DNA of 64,000 nt from an uncultured Actinomycetes bacterium (GTDB taxonomy: Bacteria > Actinomycetota > Actinomycetes > S36-B12 > UBA10799): assembly GCA_963752505.1 (NCBI GenBank), contig CAVVYM010000001.1, positions 87,411-151,410 on the forward strand. Direction: 5' to 3'. Below are positions 54,880 to 64,000 of this stretch, piece after piece (the first letter of the stretch is position 1; each line of letters starts with the position of its first letter). The notes beneath the pieces are model-generated. The model ran no database searches. It was given only the letters and a program-made list of their open reading frames with translations, and had not been told where the DNA came from. A program made the translations under genes and the position numbers.

Positions 54880-55717
54880 GGTCGTGGCGCGATGCTCACG
54901 CTGACCATGCCCGGCCCCACGTGGGCGCCCACCACGGCACCCACCTCGTTCACGAGAATGTTGTTGAGCCCAGCCGGTTCTCCAAGTCGGCGGCCAGTGC
55001 CACGCCCCGGTCAGGTGCGGCAAGGTGCTGTACGGCCACGTCGACGGAACGATCGCCGATGCGTTCGACGGCGATCTCCGCCAGCCGGGCCAGCGCCTTG
55101 TTGGCAGTGCGGGCCTTCTCCAGTGGCATCACCCGGCCATCCACAAGTTGAAGCAGCGGCTTGACGCGCAGGGCGGTGCCGACTGCGGCGCTCGCCACGC
55201 CGATCCGCCCCCCGCGGCGCAGGTACTCCAAGGTGTCGACGTAGAAGAGCAACTCGGCTCCTGCCGCAACGCGCCGGGCCGCGTCGGCGACCTCGGTGGC
55301 GTCCGCACCTCTGTGGGCGGCTTCGGCGGCTGCAAGGACGGCGAAGCCGAGCGCCATCCCCACCGCCCGCGAGTCGATGACGGTGACCGGGATCGCCGCA
55401 TCGTGCGAGGCGAGCAGCGCTGACTCGTAAGTTCCACTCATGTCCGACGAGAGATGGATGCTCACGACCGCGTCAGCGCCAGCCTCAGCGGCAGCCCGGT
55501 AGACCGACGCGAAATCGGCCGGAGTGGGCCGTGAAGTCGTGATGACCTTCCATTCGCGCAGCGCCTCGGCCACCTGCCACGGTTGGATCTGCGTGCCCTC
55601 CTCGTATCCGCGGCCGGCGACGATCACGAGCACTGGCACCACGCGCACCTGCCACTTGGCGACTAGCTCGTCAGGCAGGTAGGAGGTGGAATCGGTGACG
55701 ATGGCGACTGAGGGCAT
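54876..55717 (-). pseudogene. DegV family fatty-acid-binding protein, interrupted by one frameshift near 54969-54971 (or a consensus error)
   Basis: ORF 54950..55717 carries the DegV body (VAIVTDSTSYLP...). The canonical C-terminus LNNILVNEVGAVVGAHVGPGMVSVSIAPRP continues in the +1 frame and ends in an ATGA overlap with plsY. Confidence 0.8.
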
Positions 55718-55797
55718 GGCGCCACCCTACTTGCGCACCCGGGGGGAGTCCTGTGGCGAAGCCAGCGGCGCGACGAGCGGGCGCCAGTGCGATCGGG

Positions 55798-58298
55798 TCA
55801 GGAGGCTGGCACCAAGTTCACCAGTTTGGGTGCCCGCACAATCGTGCGTGCGACCTCCCGACCGGCGAGGGCCTTGACCACCGAGGGATCCGTCAGCGCC
55901 AGCGCCTCCAGTTCGTCAGTGCTGATCTGCGGACTCACCCTCAGGCGCGCCTTCACCTTGCCCGCCACCTGCACGATGCAGGTGACCTCGTCCGCGCACG
56001 AGGAGCGCCGGATCGACCTGCGGCCAGCCGGCCCGGGCCACCGAGGGGCTATGCCCGAGCCGTGCCCACATGTCCTCCGCCGTGTAGGGCGCGACCAGCG
56101 AGAGCAGGATCGCCACCGCCTCAACCGCTTCGCGCACCGCCGGGTCGTGCGGTCCGGGGCCTGAGTCGATGGCCTTGCGCGCGGCGTTGACCAACTCCAT
56201 GACCTCGCGCCACGGCGACGTTGAACCGATAGGCGTCGATCGCCTGAGCGGCATCGTCGATCGAGCCGGTGCGCGATCGTGCGCAGCGTGATGTCACCGG
56301 TCGTGGCGTCCGCGCCGGGTGGGCTCTGGACTCCTGCGGCCAGCCGCCACGCCCGCGCGAGGAACCGATTCGAACCTGCCGGGGACACATCGGCCCAGTC
56401 GATGTCGTCCTCGGGCGGCCCGGCGAACACCATCGTCAGCCGGATCGCGTCGACCCCGTGCTGCGGCCAGTTCGTCGGAGAGGCGCACCAGGTTGCCCCG
56501 CGACTTGCTCATCGCCGAACCATCCATGACCACCATGCCCTGGTTGAGCAGGCGGGTGAACGGTTCGTCGAAGTCGACCAGGCCCATGTCGTGCAGCACC
56601 TTGGTGAAGAACCGCGCGTACAGCAGGTGCAGGATCGCGTGCGTCACGCCACCGACGTACTGGTCGACCGGCATCCAGCGTCGCGCCTGGCCGGCGTCGA
56701 ACGGGCCCGTCGTCCTTGCGCGGGTCGAGGTAGCGCAGGAAGTACCAGGAGGAGTCGACGAAGGTGTCCATGGTGTCGGTGTCCCGCTGCGCGGTCCCAC
56801 CGCACTTCGGGCAGGCCACGTCCGCCCAGTCGGTTGCTGCACCCAGCGGCGACGTGCCCTTCGGCTTGAGATCCAGACCCTCGCTGCCGGGCAGCCGCAC
56901 CGGCAGCTCGGTCACCGGCACCGGCGACCTCACCGCACTGCTCGCAGTGGACGATCGGGATCGGGGTGCCCCAGTAGCGCTGCCTCGAGATCAGCCAGTC
57001 GCGCAGGCGGTAGTTGACTGCGGCCTCGGCCGGTGCCCCGCTCGTCCAGGACCGCGATGATCCGGGCGATCGCCTCAGCCTTGTCGAGTCCGTCGAGCGG
57101 GCCGGAGTTGACGTGCCGGCCGTCGTCCGCGGTCGCCTCCCCCGTCGCGGTCGGGGTCCGTCGTCCGGTTCGACCACGACCCGCACCGGCAGGTCGAAGG
57201 CCCGAGCGAAATCGAGGTCTCGCTGGTCGTGCGCTGGCACCGCCATGATCGCCCCGGTGCCGTAGTCGGCCAGACGTAGTCGCTGGCGTAGACCGGGATC
57301 TGTTCACCGTTGACGGGTTGATGGCATAGCGCTCGAGGAACACACCCGTCTTGGGCCGGTCCGTGGCGAGTCGTTCGATATCGCTCGTCGCGCGAACCTG
57401 CTCAACGTAGGCGGCGAACTCCGCTTCGGCGGGCGTGCCCGCGGCCAGTTCCGCCGCCAGGTCGCTGTCGGCCGCCACCACGAAGAATGTCGCGCCGTAC
57501 AGCGTGTCCGGTCGGGTGGTGAAGACCGTCACCGGCTCGTCGCGACCTCGAATGGCGAACTCCACCTCGGCGCCCTCGGAACGGCCGATCCAGTTGCGCT
57601 GCATCGACAGGACCTTGTCCGGCCAGGCGGCCTCCAGTTGCGCCATGTCCTCTAGCAGGCGGTCGGCGTAATCGGTGATCCGCAAGTACCACTGCGTGAG
57701 CTTGCGCTTGGTCACGGCCGTGTCGCAGCGCTCGCACTTGCCGTCGACGACCTGCTCGTTGGCCAGCACGGTCTGGCAGTTCGGGCACCAGTTGACGTTG
57801 GAGGCCTTGCGGTAGGCCAGTCCGCGCTCGAACATCTGCAGGAAGAGCCACTGGTTCCAGCGGTAGTACTCCGGGTCGCAGGTGTTGAGCGATGCGATCC
57901 CAGTCGAACGAACACGCGTAGCGGCGCATCGAGGCGCGCTGCGTGGCGATGTTCTCGTAGGTCCAGGCCGCTGGATCAACGCCGCGCTTGATGGCGGCGT
58001 TCTCGGCAGGGAGGCCGAAGGCGTCCCAACCGATGGGGTGCAGCACGTTGTAGCCGCGCTGCACCCAGTAGCGAGCCAACACATCGCCGAGGGCGTAGGC
58101 CTCCGCGTGCCCCATGTGCAGGTCGCCGGAGGGGTAGGGGAACATGTCGAGCACGTACTTCGTCGGCCGATCGTCATCCGGGTTGCCGGAACGAAAAGGC
58201 GCAATCTGGTCCCACACAGGCAGCCACCGCTCTTGCAGGGCGTGCGGATCGAACGAGGATGCGAGGAAGCCGGCGTCGGCATCTGTATAAGTACTCAT
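55798..58298 (-). pseudogene. leuS: Leucine--tRNA ligase, fragmented over about eleven frame switches (pseudogene or assembly indels)
   Basis: HIGH ([11 protein letters not shown]), [62 protein letters not shown] (AMSKSRGN), [13 protein letters not shown] and the C-terminal [13 protein letters not shown] are all present. They are distributed over ORFs 57402..58298, 56930..58282, 56644..57246, 56436..56933, 56294..56842, 56121..56390, 55916..56254 and 55798..56433. Confidence 0.85.
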
Positions 58299-58408
58299 AG
58301 CCGTCCCAGGCTATCCCTGGGCTACTCAGGTCCACCCATGCAGTTGGCCTCTCGGCCGAGCTCGGGCCGTAGGATGCGGTCCGTGCTGTTGCCGGCGGGC
58401 GGATTGGG

Positions 58409-59170
58409 ATGGGAATGCTGCTAGGAACCCTTGAGTACCAGGTGCACCGGATCGCCGGCTGGCCTCGACAGCAACTGCTTCGACATCGGGAGCGGCACAA
58501 ACCTCAGCACGTCATCGACATGCTGGAGGCAACGCGCTTCCGACGCCCGGCCTATGACTTCATCGTTGCCATGATGGTGAATCCATCGATCTTGTACGAC
58601 TTCGATTTGAGTACCGACGATCTCGCCGTCGACGTGGGCGCATTCGAAGGGGAATGGGCAAGTCGAATCAGTGACACCTACGGATGCACTGTCGACGCCT
58701 TCGACTTGAGCCCGCGATTCAACGAGCCGCTCGCAGCCGTGGCGGACTCCCATCCCAAAGTGCAGGTCCACCATGTCGGTCTCGGCGCCGCCGACGAGTT
58801 GGTACGAGTCTCGAAGAAGAGCATGGGTTCGTCCGCCTTCGCCCATCCAGGGGATTCCTCCGACCAGGTCTGGGATGAGGCGCGGATCCGAGACGTCGCC
58901 GGTGTCTGGGACGAACTCGGCTGGACCCGAGTGGCTGCGATGAAGATGAACATCGAAGGCGGCGAATACGATCTACTCGAGCGCCTGATCGCGACCGGGC
59001 TGCATGCCCGCGTGGACGCCTTCACCATCCAGTTCCACGAGTGGTTACCCGACGCCTACCGGCGTCGCCGACGTATCCGAAAAGCGCTCAATCAGACGCA
59101 CGTATGCGACTGGAACTACCCCTTCATTTGGGAGAAATGGTCACGTCGCCGGAACCAGCAGCGGCAGTGA
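58409..59170 (+). CDS. FkbM-family methyltransferase (paralog 1, intact)
   Basis: DVGAFEGEWASRISDTYGCTVDAFDLSP, VGLGAADE, and MKMNIEGGEYDLLERLIATG...IQFHEW, typical of Methyltransf_21/FkbM. Confidence 0.8.
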   Translation: MGMLLGTLEYQVHRIAGWPRQQLLRHRERHKPQHVIDMLEATRFRRPAYDFIVAMMVNPSILYDFDLSTDDLAVDVGAFEGEWASRISDTYGCTVDAFDLSPRFNEPLAAVADSHPKVQVHHVGLGAADELVRVSKKSMGSSAFAHPGDSSDQVWDEARIRDVAGVWDELGWTRVAAMKMNIEGGEYDLLERLIATGLHARVDAFTIQFHEWLPDAYRRRRRIRKALNQTHVCDWNYPFIWEKWSRRRNQQRQ

Positions 59171-59202
59171 GGCAACGATTCCTATCTGGGCTACGTGGTA
59201 GG

Positions 59203-59784
59203 TCATGTGCACCCCCACGCGTAGTTGCGGCCGCTCTGGACGAATCGAGTCCACCCAAGGATAGTGTCTGACGCTACAAACAGCGCGGCTGCGGCGGCCA
59301 GTGGCCAGGTGTTAGTAGCGAAGGCCGCCACTGCCATCAAGCTCAAGAGAACTTGATAGATAGACACCACCTGTCCCATCGCAATGTTCCGCTGGGAGGC
59401 AGCTACCGTGATGCGCCGGCCGACGGTGAACATCAGAACCAGCGCCAACGCGATCCCGATCGTCATCCCGATGCCCGGCTGCGCGTAGGGGAGCCAGCCG
59501 ATGATGTACAGCAGATGCCCGACCGCGAATGCAGCCGCCCCCGGCACGAACTTGCCCAGCATCAGCCCGACATCGCCAGCAAGACCTGCTGCTTGGGCCC
59601 CGACCGTGAATAGGCGCAAAGCCATCGGGATATCAGGCAACGTGAGCGTCGCTGCGATCAACACCACCATTACTGCCGGCTTGAAGGTGTAGACCAAACG
59701 ATCCCGCCCGCCGGCGACCCCGACCCAATCGATTGCCGCTGCCACGAACGCCACGATGAGAAGCGCAATCGTGGTGGTTGTCAT
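59203..59784 (-). CDS. YhhN-family lysoplasmalogenase-like membrane protein
   Basis: 193 aa polytopic. Contains FKPAVMVVLI, GLAGDVGLM, AFAVGHLLYI, FVASDTILGW. ATG 59784 is preceded by GAGGAGG. Confidence 0.75.
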   Translation of the reverse strand: MTTTTIALLIVAFVAAAIDWVGVAGGRDRLVYTFKPAVMVVLIAATLTLPDIPMALRLFTVGAQAAGLAGDVGLMLGKFVPGAAAFAVGHLLYIIGWLPYAQPGIGMTIGIALALVLMFTVGRRITVAASQRNIAMGQVVSIYQVLLSLMAVAAFATNTWPLAAAAALFVASDTILGWTRFVQSGRNYAWGCT

Positions 59785-59798
59785 GAGACCTCCTCGTA

Positions 59799-60560
59799 CT
59801 AGTCGGATCCCACCGCGTTCGGCGTACCTCGTTCGGCGAGTCTGCCCGCCAGCATTGCACCCACGGCGGTACCCACCGCCTCGTGGCTGCGCCACGACCA
59901 GTGCATGCCGTCAGGGTTGGCCGTACCGTCCAGCAGTGACGGCCAGATCAACGGGTCGACATCAAGGAAGTGCAGGCCAAGAGCCCTAGCCGCATCTTGG
60001 GCAGCCACCACTGCCGGCCCGTGGCTCCTGGTAGCGGGGTAGTCGCGCGCAGCAAAGGGCGCGGGTCCGAGCAGCAGGATGGGCAGGTTTCCGCGGTAGT
60101 ACCGAATACCCCCGACGATCCGCGCGAGGTAGGAGTCTGTGGCTGATTGCGGCAACTGCCGGAACGGTCCACCCGTCGCCCGCATGACCTTCGGAGCCGC
60201 GATTCGGTAGGTTTGCCGGAGCCGGCGTCGCCAGGAGCCGGGGCGTACGTAGGCAATTCCCTCCCGCAGGTAGGTTGGGATTGCTGCTGGGAGTTGATCC
60301 ATTCCTCCCAGCGCGATCACGACGGCGTCAGCCTGCGGGAGAACTTCGCCCCAGCAGCGTGGGTCCTTGGTGAGTGCCCACCACCCGTCTCGCATTGTCC
60401 ACCCCAGCCGCGCAACCAGGTCAATTCGAGCGTCAACACCACAGTGCGCAAGCTCCACCGCAACCATCCGGGGCCATAGCCGGGCGTCGTGAGGCATCTC
60501 GGCTCGTTCCGGACCGTGATAGGTCAACGAGTCTCCGAGAACCAAGACGTTAACACTCAC
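59799..60560 (-). CDS. SGNH/GDSL hydrolase family protein
   Basis: Block I VLVLGDSLT and block V DGMHW. Lies 15 bp upstream of, and co-oriented with, the YhhN gene. Confidence 0.8.
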   Translation of the reverse strand: MSVNVLVLGDSLTYHGPERAEMPHDARLWPRMVAVELAHCGVDARIDLVARLGWTMRDGWWALTKDPRCWGEVLPQADAVVIALGGMDQLPAAIPTYLREGIAYVRPGSWRRRLRQTYRIAAPKVMRATGGPFRQLPQSATDSYLARIVGGIRYYRGNLPILLLGPAPFAARDYPATRSHGPAVVAAQDAARALGLHFLDVDPLIWPSLLDGTANPDGMHWSWRSHEAVGTAVGAMLAGRLAERGTPNAVGSD

Positions 60561-60692
60561 ATGCTCACCCTAGGAGGCGGCTCGTTCGGCGCCGGACCGT
60601 ACCCGGCGCAACGTCTGCAGACACTCCCGGTCAGTATGACCAGCCGGGCGGGCCGCGGGCAGTAGGTTGGGACCTGTGAATAGGATGTTCCG

Positions 60693-61463
60693 GTGACCGA
60701 AACGCCGCGCCGGCTGCGCGGGTTCCGTCGCCCCACCGAATACGACATACGCCGATTGCTCGGCACCCCACGGAAGTGGGTCATGCGCCGCAAAGAGCGG
60801 GACCAGGATCCGCTCGCGATCGCCTTCTTGAGGCGGGGCGCTACCGCAAGGCGCAGTATCGGTTCATCGCACGGCGCATCGATGAACCCGAGATCCTTTA
60901 CACCTGTGACAATCTGACCGAAGACTCGTTGGCCGTCGACGTCGGGGCTTTCGAAGGCCTCTGGAGCACCAGCGTGTCGGCACGCTACGGGTGCAAAATC
61001 GACGCTTTCGAACTCAGTCCAGAATTCTTCGGCGTCATGGCTGACGTGGCCGAGGAGTTCCCGGGAGTGCGGTCGCACGAGTATGGCCTTGGAGGGCGAG
61101 ACGAGACTGTGCGGGTCTCGCAAACGCACATGGGCTCCTCAGTGTTCATCAATCCGGTGACCGGCGAGGACGTCGACTGGATCGACGCGCAGATTCGGGA
61201 CGTGGCTGAGGTCTGGTCGGAACTCGGCTGGGATCGCGTTGCGGTGATGAAGATCAACATCGAAGGTGGCGAATACGACCTACTCGATCGACTCATCGAG
61301 ACCGGGCTTCACACGCGAGTGGATTGCCTCTTCATCCAGTTCCATGAGTGGATCCCCAACGCCTACGCCCGGCGCCGACGAATCCGTAAGCACCTGCGAC
61401 ACACCCACGAGGAACAGTGGGGCTACCCCGTGGGTGTGGGAGAAGTGGGTGCTCAAGGCCTAA
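60693..61463 (+). pseudogene. FkbM-family methyltransferase (paralog 2) with two frameshifts (about 60830 and about 61425)
   Basis: N-terminus in ORF 60693..60917 (…DPLAIAFL), body in ORF 60776..61681 (EAGRYRKAQYRF…DVGAFEGLW…MKINIEGGEYDLLDRLIETG…FHEW), C-terminus WVWEKWVLKA* in ORF 61266..61463. The order is colinear with paralog 1. Confidence 0.75.
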
Positions 61464-61484
61464 CCGGCCCGGCCGCGGGAAGCA

Positions 61485-62180
61485 TCACCCGGCCAGTCCC
61501 GTGGACACCTGCAGCCGGATTCCAAGGTCTTCATAGGCGCGATGTTGAAGTTCGACAAAGTCGCCTTCGTCCCAGGGCTGCAGCACGGCAACGCCTACTA
61601 CCAGCGCTGGCAGCTCGACGTCAGCCGGGGCCATGGCTGCCATCTGCGCGACTAGCCGGGCTTCGACTGTGGATGGGGTGAACCCTGGCCCCTTGCCGAC
61701 CACCATGATCGTGTCCTCATCGACTCGGCCGACCGCGTCACCCGATCGGAAGACCAATTCGGAGGCCTCCGCCACTGAGATCATGTCCTCGTCGGTGAGT
61801 CCCGCCGGCCCACTCGAATCGGGCGACATCACCCTCACCAGGCAAGCGCTCACGGCGTCGGAATCGCGTCGGGCGATATGTACGATTCGCTGCCCGACGA
61901 GGGCTATTCCTTCGCCACTCAATAGCCCGGTGACCTCATCAAACAATGCGAAGCGCTCGAATCGCGCCTCGGCGTCGGCGAGTGCGCGCCGGAACCCGCG
62001 ACGCTCCACAAGAGCCAGTGTCCATCCGGCCGCGGCCACCAACGCCAGCCCCCCGCCGCCAACACACAGCCTGCGCGCGCATCCATCATGCGTGCAGTTT
62101 GCCAGGACCAACTCCGCAGCGGGGGACGGTGCGACAGACTGATACCCGCAAATCAAGTAGCCTGCGACTAGCAACGGCAC
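61485..62180 (-). CDS. Membrane-anchored degenerate GGDEF-domain protein (A-site lost, RxxD I-site retained)
   Basis: FDEVTGLLSGEGI corresponds to DPLTGLxNRR. RSGDAVGRVDEDTIMVV corresponds to RxxD-x5-GGDEF. Start (GTG 62180) is uncertain. The ORF-track N-terminal GRSRLRGLGRRA repeats are the antisense shadow of the neighbouring repeat. Confidence 0.6.
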   Translation of the reverse strand: MPLLVAGYLICGYQSVAPSPAAELVLANCTHDGCARRLCVGGGGLALVAAAGWTLALVERRGFRRALADAEARFERFALFDEVTGLLSGEGIALVGQRIVHIARRDSDAVSACLVRVMSPDSSGPAGLTDEDMISVAEASELVFRSGDAVGRVDEDTIMVVGKGPGFTPSTVEARLVAQMAAMAPADVELPALVVGVAVLQPWDEGDFVELQHRAYEDLGIRLQVSTGLAG

Positions 62181-62194
62181 TACTGGATGGGGCC

Positions 62195-63223
62195 ATGGAC
62201 GAGAACGCACCACAACCTGGGCACATGTCCGACGACGGGCAGTGGGTCTGGACCGGCGATCAGTGGGCACCCACCGGCGCCGAGGAGGCCTCCGGGGGTG
62301 TCGCCTACTCCGAAGCAGCCGATCCCCCATACGCGACTGAGCCCGTTGCCTATGCCCCGGAATCGGCTGAGCAAGGCGACTACTACGCCCAGCCGTACGG
62401 CCAGGACCCCGCAACCGGCTACGCCCAGCCCTACAGCCAGGACCCCGCAACCGGCTACGCCCAGCCCTACGGCCAAGACCCCGCAACCGGCTACGCCCAG
62501 CCCTACGGCCAAGACCCCGCAACCGGCTACGCCCAGCCCTACGGCCAAGACCCCGCAACCGGCTACGCCCAGCCCTACGGCCAAGACCCCGCAACCGGCT
62601 ACGCCCAGCCCGGACTAACACCGGAGTCTGGCTGGCGCTGGGACGGTCAGCAGTGGGTGCCGGTTGCCGCGGGCGCGATGCCGCCCCCTGCCGCCAACCC
62701 CGCCAAGAAGCAGCCCAACCTGCTGCTCATCGGGGGCCTAGTGGCGGTGGTGCTGATACTGGGGTTGATAGCGGTGTGGCTCCTCACCCGAGGCTCAAGT
62801 TCATCGACGTCAACGACCCCGGCGGCGACAGCCACCGCGTCTGTTCAGCCGACCAACCCGGCATCGCCCTCCGTTGACGTTTCGCCGACTTTCGATCCAT
62901 CCGCGTCGAGTGCCCCGACGGTGTTCGGGTCGCCGGGCAGCACATCGGATCCCCTGAGCCCCCAGGCCACGTCGACCGGGCCTCTCACCGTGGATCAGGC
63001 TGCGGCTGCGGTCAACTGGAGCCGCTTCTCCCCCGGGGTTCAAGCCAAGGTTGATGCGGCCGCCGCTTCTGGCAACTGCGCCGAACTGCAGACCCTGCGT
63101 CAGACTGCACAAAGCAACAGCGCTTCAGTGCTCGCCAGCACTGGCCAAGGCACAGAGGACCTCGTTGCCTACATCGAGGCGCAAGAGCGCGCCGTAGGCT
63201 GCGCCGCAGCCCCCGCGCCCTAG
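62195..63223 (+). CDS. Single-pass membrane protein with an N-terminal YAQPYGQDPATG tandem repeat and an S/T/P-rich linker
   Basis: MDENAPQPGHMSDDGQWVWTGDQWAP..., the (YAQPYGQDPATG) repeats, GWRWDGQQWVPV, TM LLLIGGLVAVVLILGLIAVWLL, an STP-rich linker and a Cys-containing C-terminal domain. Confidence 0.7.
   Translation: MDENAPQPGHMSDDGQWVWTGDQWAPTGAEEASGGVAYSEAADPPYATEPVAYAPESAEQGDYYAQPYGQDPATGYAQPYSQDPATGYAQPYGQDPATGYAQPYGQDPATGYAQPYGQDPATGYAQPYGQDPATGYAQPGLTPESGWRWDGQQWVPVAAGAMPPPAANPAKKQPNLLLIGGLVAVVLILGLIAVWLLTRGSSSSTSTTPAATATASVQPTNPASPSVDVSPTFDPSASSAPTVFGSPGSTSDPLSPQATSTGPLTVDQAAAAVNWSRFSPGVQAKVDAAAASGNCAELQTLRQTAQSNSASVLASTGQGTEDLVAYIEAQERAVGCAAAPAP
62384..62611. repeat. 36-bp in-frame tandem repeat, about 6.3 units (last four units identical)
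   Basis: TACGCCCAGCCCTACGGCCAAGACCCCGCAACCGGC units at 62384, 62420, 62456, 62492, 62528 and 62564, plus a partial unit. Confidence 0.9.
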
Positions 63224-63257: not shown

Positions 63258-63959
63258 ATGAACCTTCGAGATGCGGCCCGGACTGCCGAACTGTCACCCG
63301 ACGCCCGGGTGCGATACCTGGGCGCGGCAGCTGCTGTCCTGGGGCCGGTCACGGCAGTCGTCGCGGTCTTCTACGCCCTTCTTGCGGTTTCTCACCTTGT
63401 CGTCCTCGAGGGTTCGGCCGGACAGATCATGTCAGCGACCGCGGCCGCCACAGCCGTGTTCATCGGCGCCCTTTCCGCCTGGTGGTATCGGCTTCGGCAG
63501 GGGCTTCGCTTTGCCAACCTCCTCCTGACCCTCGTGTTGGTGCTCGCCTTCGCCAACTCCGGACTTCACCTCTACCTCACCGACCAGATCATCCAGACCA
63601 CCAACTTCATGCTCGTCATCATTGCCTGCGGCCTGGGGCTGATGAGCACGCCCTGGAACGTCGCAGCAACCACCGTTGGCTGGCTGATGTGGGCCGCCGC
63701 ACTGTTAGGCGTAGCGAGCCTCGATGCCACACATTGGCTGTTCTCCATGCTGATGGCCACCTTTGTCGGCCAGCTGGGTCGCTACGGCCGTCGCCGCAGC
63801 CTCGACACGGCCGCCGCCGCCTACCAGCAGATCGGGGAATTGAGCCTTCGAGACCCGCTCACCGGCCTTTCGAATCGGCGAGGACTCCAACTCCGGGGCT
63901 CCGACCTCGTTGCGGTGGCGCGCCATACGGCCAGCGCTTCTACGCGGCTCTCGAGGTAG
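63258..63959 (+). CDS. Polytopic membrane protein with the beginning of a GGDEF domain (apparently truncated or frameshifted; continues past the window)
   Basis: About 6 TM segments, then LRDPLTGLSNRRGL. The ORF stops at 63959, but GGDEFAVV is encoded in another frame at 63977-64000. Confidence 0.6.
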   Translation: MNLRDAARTAELSPDARVRYLGAAAAVLGPVTAVVAVFYALLAVSHLVVLEGSAGQIMSATAAATAVFIGALSAWWYRLRQGLRFANLLLTLVLVLAFANSGLHLYLTDQIIQTTNFMLVIIACGLGLMSTPWNVAATTVGWLMWAAALLGVASLDATHWLFSMLMATFVGQLGRYGRRRSLDTAAAAYQQIGELSLRDPLTGLSNRRGLQLRGSDLVAVARHTASASTRLSR

Positions 63960-64000
63960 TCGGACTAAGGAGTCGGGGCGGTGACGAGTTCGCGGTCGTC

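Follow-up and report, generated by a model that had tools for sequence, protein, structure and literature searches.

Results

A full-length leuS is split over three reading frames

If a leuS gene is found in pieces, is the gene being lost or has it been broken by the assembly? In the window, by which we mean the whole 64-kb stretch of DNA analysed here, the minus strand from 55807 to 58298 encodes leuS, a leucine-tRNA ligase of the bacterial type that is split over three frames while the order of its parts is kept. A sequence-only reading of the stretch had assigned eight ORFs with diagnostic motifs to this gene, and all eight, including their motifs, were found where it had placed them. We mapped the frame switches with a purpose-written, frameshift-aware dynamic programming aligner that compares protein to DNA. 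Plain tblastn masked shifts inside gapped alignments, and a GC3 frame plot was too noisy for mapping the leuS shifts.

Compared with the intact LeuS of L004, positions 58286 to 55807 (minus strand) gave a single colinear alignment with 79% identity and 11 frame switches. The same span aligned colinearly with the intact LeuS of L083, with 86% identity and again 11 frame switches. The read-through of this frameshift-aware alignment comprised 828 amino acids without any in-frame stop codon. With X at the shifted codons, it scored 961.1 bits against TIGR00396 (leuS_bact equivalog, cutoff 548.4), and the match spanned positions 3–841 of the 843 positions of the profile, that is, the full length of the protein. 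The single alignments to L004 and L083, together with the end-to-end match to TIGR00396, bore out the claim that the segments are colinear and conserved. The count of about eleven frame switches held as well, with 11 by alignment and 12 if a +2 event is split. What the deposited sequence lacks is an uninterrupted reading frame.

Both signatures of class I synthetases, HIGH (as HMGH) and KMSKS (as AMSKSRGN), were present in the leuS pieces, and the separate ORFs hold pieces of the Pfam domains PF00133, PF09334, PF13603 and PF08264. The CP1 editing domain (PF13603) matched two ORF pieces (E = 1e-30 and 4e-9), while the anticodon-binding domain (PF08264) matched the piece at 55916–56254. Among 5.8 billion proteins, the nearest LeuS was only 87% identical; the nearest proteins (86–87%) are intact, comprise 830 amino acids and belong to Nanopelagicales-like Actinomycetota MAGs. 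Pfam calls on syntenic relatives revealed the gene order yhhN-leuS-degV-plsY-comEA-comEC-holA, which is that of the window and includes the leuS-degV-plsY-comEA-comEC-holA context recognised before. No second leuS locus was detected within the 64-kb window. An exact look-up of the window DegV in public assemblies returned no record and thus no second, independent assembly of this strain.

Position and sequence context of the leuS frame shifts

We took the positions of the indels from a multiple alignment of the window DNA with that of seven relatives in which the gene is intact. The 11 frame corrections comprised eight +1 events, two -1 events and one +2 event, the latter probably representing two +1 events. 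All lie on the minus strand, and the single-base events were placed by both alignments. The first extra base, at 57891, follows codon ~135 and separates the HIGH segment from an 11-residue segment. The two losses, at ~57315 and ~57274, lie on either side of a 14-residue segment. The +2 event lies at 57157–57156 in the DNA multiple alignment, where the editing domain has a variable loop. A 92% identical contig from metagenome X2 resolved it into two separate insertions of one base, at ~57152 and ~57162, with which the number of events would be 12. Further extra bases were located at 57026 and 56926, at 56705 and 56462, and at 56267, 56205 and 55997.

Most of these events are an inserted A, C or G outside homopolymer runs (for example CCG[A]GG, GGT[C]GCC and CGC[A]GCA). 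Insertions outnumber deletions, and no deletion was longer than 2 bases. We searched the leuS shift sites for a common motif or homopolymer context and found none. At the junctions that it could resolve, the sequence-only reading had seen single bases lost from short runs of G or C. This description fits two of the 11–12 events; according to the DNA alignment with the seven relatives, the remaining junctions are eight to ten single-base insertions, mostly outside homopolymers.

Frame shifts in neighbouring genes

We scanned the neighbouring genes with the same aligner, using orthologues from three related genomes, and checked the shifts by DNA alignments. Both approaches agreed that degV and the YhhN-family gene yhhN, which are both on the minus strand, are shifted by -1 close to their 3' ends, at 54972 and 59237, respectively; the degV ORF ends at 255 instead of 280 amino acids. 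They also agreed on two shifts in the second FkbM-like paralog on the plus strand (-1 at ~60825 and +1 at ~61430). In a 201-aa gene on the minus strand, a -1 shift close to the start (62071) is possible; the local alignment there is weak, and the DNA alignment confirmed the shift only weakly. At the end of the SGNH gene, the aligner placed a +2 event near 59824, which the DNA alignment did not confirm.

In total, about 17 indel events fall into 54.97–62.1 kb, versus no ORF-breaking shift in any orthologue compared between 18.7 and 54.9 kb (~36 kb). The latter set includes comEC, lepA, an AMP-binding gene, hrcA, dnaJ, phoH, era, recO, glyS and dnaG. The shifts are thus clustered by region, whatever the gene, and are not confined to a single gene that might have been released from selection: degV, yhhN, the second FkbM paralog and the 201-aa gene are shifted as well. 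leuS carries most of the events (11–12), probably because it is the longest and best-conserved gene of the stretch. Per kb, leuS has 4.4 events, and the remaining shifted genes have about 1. The excess is mild (P of about 0.01 under a flat Poisson model) and may be due to detection power.

Some candidates from the scan were discarded. Two shifts in dnaG (21883 and 21789) sum to +3 within an intact ORF and were rejected as alignment effects rather than real breaks. Likewise, the dGTPase gene has an intact ORF, and its apparent N-terminal shift (24477) is an alignment effect. In holA and lepA, the supposed "stops" turned out to be the regular stop codons at which these genes end. As for dnaG itself, a +2 and a +1 shift 94 nt apart in an intact 646-aa ORF may represent a naturally compensated frame change or an alignment effect at a variable linker.

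Independent metagenome contigs and a divergent tract

Among public sequencing runs, the best share of the stretch found in any run was 0.14. Three unrelated metagenomes, X1, X6 and X11, contain a population at 2–6x depth that is at least 99.5% identical to the window at 51.0–55.9 and 62.15–63.9 kb. Between these flanks, from 55909 to 62150, lies a divergent tract in which the window is mostly ~5–9% different from this population: the same runs yield mostly 91–95% identical contigs there, at unchanged depth. The mismatches within the tract are common to the three runs, and at 57211–57235 the distances between them are multiples of three, as expected of natural alleles. Fragments of 98–100% identity occur inside the tract at 57239–57420 and 61325–61577. 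All shifts but that of degV fall within the tract.

Independent short-read metagenome contigs of 98–99.6% identity cover four of the shift sites, and at all four the frame is restored; that is, the indels are absent wherever nearly identical independent sequence was available. At ~54971 in degV, contigs from X1 and X11 (at least 99.6% identical) have one more base than the window, and a ~98% identical X1 contig has one more base at each of the leuS sites 57271 and 57314. At 61426 in the FkbM paralog, contigs from X11 (98%) and X6 (99%) are one base shorter. These contigs stem from other samples and differ by 0.4–2% from the window; what they prove is an intact frame in close relatives, but not in the strain of the window itself.

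Contigs of ~92% identity restore six more leuS sites, namely 55992, 56208, 56262, 56463, 56706 and 57152/57162. An X2 contig (depth 35) has one base fewer at 56262, 56208 and 55992, X2 and X6 contigs have one base fewer at 56463/56464, and X6 and X11 contigs at 56706. Within leuS, the contig comparison covered the parts below 56490 and from 56660 to 57420, short of the site at 57891. In the spacer between leuS and degV, an X6 contig is one base shorter than the window at 55779, where the X1 contig equals the window.

The gene content of the tract differs from that of relatives. An intact 253-aa FkbM-like gene (58409–59170, plus strand), for which a Pfam search gave no match at E ≤ 0.001, lies between leuS and yhhN. 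In L081 and L083, yhhN adjoins leuS, and only the orthologue of the second FkbM paralog (60693–61463) is found. Over 253 nt, the two paralogs are 73% identical, and the GC content of the area (0.625) is lower than that of its surroundings. We rejected a repeat-driven misassembly via the two paralogs, since 73% identity over 253 nt is too weak to cause it alone. The tract may represent either a recombinant or strain-variable segment or a chimeric assembly join.

Further structural features were noted downstream. An X1 contig equals the window up to 63936 and continues with 86 bases unlike the window; at this very place, the GGDEF gene seems to be shifted or to have an internal deletion (aligner event at 63946). 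The difference at 63936–64000 is a structural difference or a misjoin and not a simple one-base indel. A 36-nt tandem repeat with about six copies, four of them 96–100% identical, occupies 62347–62634, and contigs from X1, X6 and X11 fit two places of it.

The metagenomes that contain the near-identical organism at 2–6x are very different from each other (soil, marine, macroalgae and freshwater sediment). For parts of leuS, matches were mostly found in sequencing runs of people. Such wide occurrence could point to a widespread reagent or water contaminant, or the matches could merely be conserved words.

Substitutions in LeuS

Neutral decay over the time needed for 11–12 indels should also leave substitutions in several-fold larger number, stops among them, as in bacterial pseudogenes. 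We compared the LeuS read-through with 120 homologues. At the 451 columns that are at least 99% conserved among them, it mismatched at one, with a conservative exchange (E686D). In a leave-one-out analysis of the same columns, 77 of the 120 homologues had no mismatch, and the worst had 9–10. At columns of 95%, 90% and 80% conservation, the window LeuS had 6, 12 and 23 mismatches, respectively (90th percentile of the homologues: 7, 13 and 29). With no stop codon and a single changed column out of 451, the combination of stops and changes at invariant residues that marks a pseudogene was not found.

Other measures deviated somewhat. The window LeuS has 19 residues found in no homologue (90th percentile of the homologues 12, maximum 21). 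Its terminal branch in the LeuS tree is about 1.8x that of its sister, and its identity to two relatives lies ~4 points below their mutual identity, a gap to which the X placeholders contribute ~1.3 points. The long branch and the identity gap are mild signals that are limited to variable columns. By any substitution-based test, leuS is not decaying; indels alone have accumulated.

Discussion

The sequence-only reading had left two options for the broken leuS: either indel errors of the consensus had piled up in this patch, or the gene had been inactivated very recently. Our results favour the former: neighbouring genes are shifted as well, substitution decay is absent and near-identical contigs are intact. 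We consider it very probable that the broken leuS is an assembly or consensus artefact and not a biological pseudogene, and the organism probably has an ordinary, intact leuS in a single ORF of about 828 codons. We infer a low-quality consensus as the cause. The ~7-kb stretch from 54.97 to 62.1 kb would have been built from poor or mixed read support, possibly through low coverage of a strain-variable segment or through consensus building or polishing across co-occurring strains. Alternatively, a chimeric join to a rarer relative might have produced the divergent, indel-rich tract. A poor or mixed consensus of this kind would leave one-base insertions and deletions scattered across the stretch. 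That divergence and indels pile up in one and the same tract would be covered, in both respects, by a strain-mixed or chimeric assembly from few reads. That long-read assemblies can break genes through erroneous indels is documented (PMC12007338, Kastor; PMC8442456, Trycycler). Several observations speak against an artefact, namely the lack of the homopolymer signature usual for a current Nanopore, 454 or Ion Torrent consensus, the excess of events in leuS, and the longer terminal branch and lower identity of LeuS described above.

A true, very recent pseudogene would mean that the indels in leuS and its neighbours are real and that a second leuS, for example an acquired or antibiotic-insensitive one, exists elsewhere. 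The indels are present in the deposited sequence, leuS is struck more densely than its neighbours and has a somewhat long terminal branch, and the tract resembles a strain-specific or recombinant segment, all of which such an inactivation would accommodate. It would also require ~17 or more indels within less than 1–2% divergence, essentially without substitutions. The events are all 1 base long without larger deletions, stops are missing and just one invariant column is altered. In addition, unrelated neighbours are struck alike, contigs of 98–99.6% identity are intact at every covered site, and the 64-kb window holds no second leuS. Recent inactivation is therefore very unlikely in our view. 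Marginally less probable still is a real, localized burst of indels, as might arise when a recombined tract of ~6–7 kb is resynthesised by error-prone repair; this again would need a second leuS elsewhere. The sequence might also be correct and expressed by recoding, that is, by programmed +1/-1 frameshifting, quadruplet decoding or transcript editing. In favour of recoding, eight +1 "four-base codons" each stand in place of one residue of the homologues. However, no motif is common to the four-base words (ATCG, CGAG, GTCG, GACG, GCAG, CGGC, CGAG, CGCG), +1, -1 and +2 events are mixed, and slippery runs are missing. Moreover, similar shifts occur in unrelated neighbours and in none of the other ~36 kb compared, and the extra bases are absent from close relatives. 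We regard recoding as scarcely credible. Given that the sites have neither a common motif nor a homopolymer context, we rejected recoding together with a simple model of homopolymer errors.

A tentative and more plausible alternative, although we still think it unlikely, is a hybrid in which 55.9–62.1 kb is a genuine recombinant import from a donor ~8% diverged and only the indels are errors. It is consistent with the sharp switch in identity to the X1/X6/X11 population on both sides of the tract, as well as with the mismatches common to the three runs, some of them spaced by multiples of three. But a natural import gives no cause for indels exactly there, while a chimeric or low-coverage consensus accounts for divergence and indels together, and the 98–100% identical fragments inside the tract also count against an import.

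If the shifts are an artefact, ~55–62 kb of this contig is unfit for pseudogene calls and for statements on gene content or completeness. No functional inference on leuS, degV, yhhN or the FkbM paralog should then be drawn from this stretch, and the same assembly may contain other such patches. More generally, where a patch of indels falls on a strain-variable segment, the result can look like the loss of an essential gene. If, on the other hand, the shifts were real, the syntenic leuS would be lost and a replacement LeuRS would be implied, a case of interest for the paralogy of aminoacyl-tRNA synthetases and for resistance to LeuRS inhibitors. Nothing in our analysis supports a replacement LeuRS.

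How does the locus compare with known systems? With LeuS proteins of the TIGR00396 type, the window leuS shares the whole profile, the motifs, the editing and anticodon-binding parts and the gene order. However, such proteins are encoded by one ORF, whereas the deposited leuS lies in pieces in three frames with 11–12 one-base indels. The decaying pseudogenes of Mycobacterium leprae and Rickettsia resemble it in their multiple frameshifts and in the syntenic place that they keep. Unlike these pseudogenes, the window leuS has no stops, keeps its invariant residues, has no deletion of more than 2 bases and lies among neighbours that are equally struck. Assemblies with indel errors (PMC12007338, PMC8442456) have in common with the window that scattered +1 and -1 indels are clustered, break several unrelated conserved genes and are missing from near-identical independent sequence; the window leuS differs from them in that its events lie mostly outside homopolymers and that insertions outnumber deletions.
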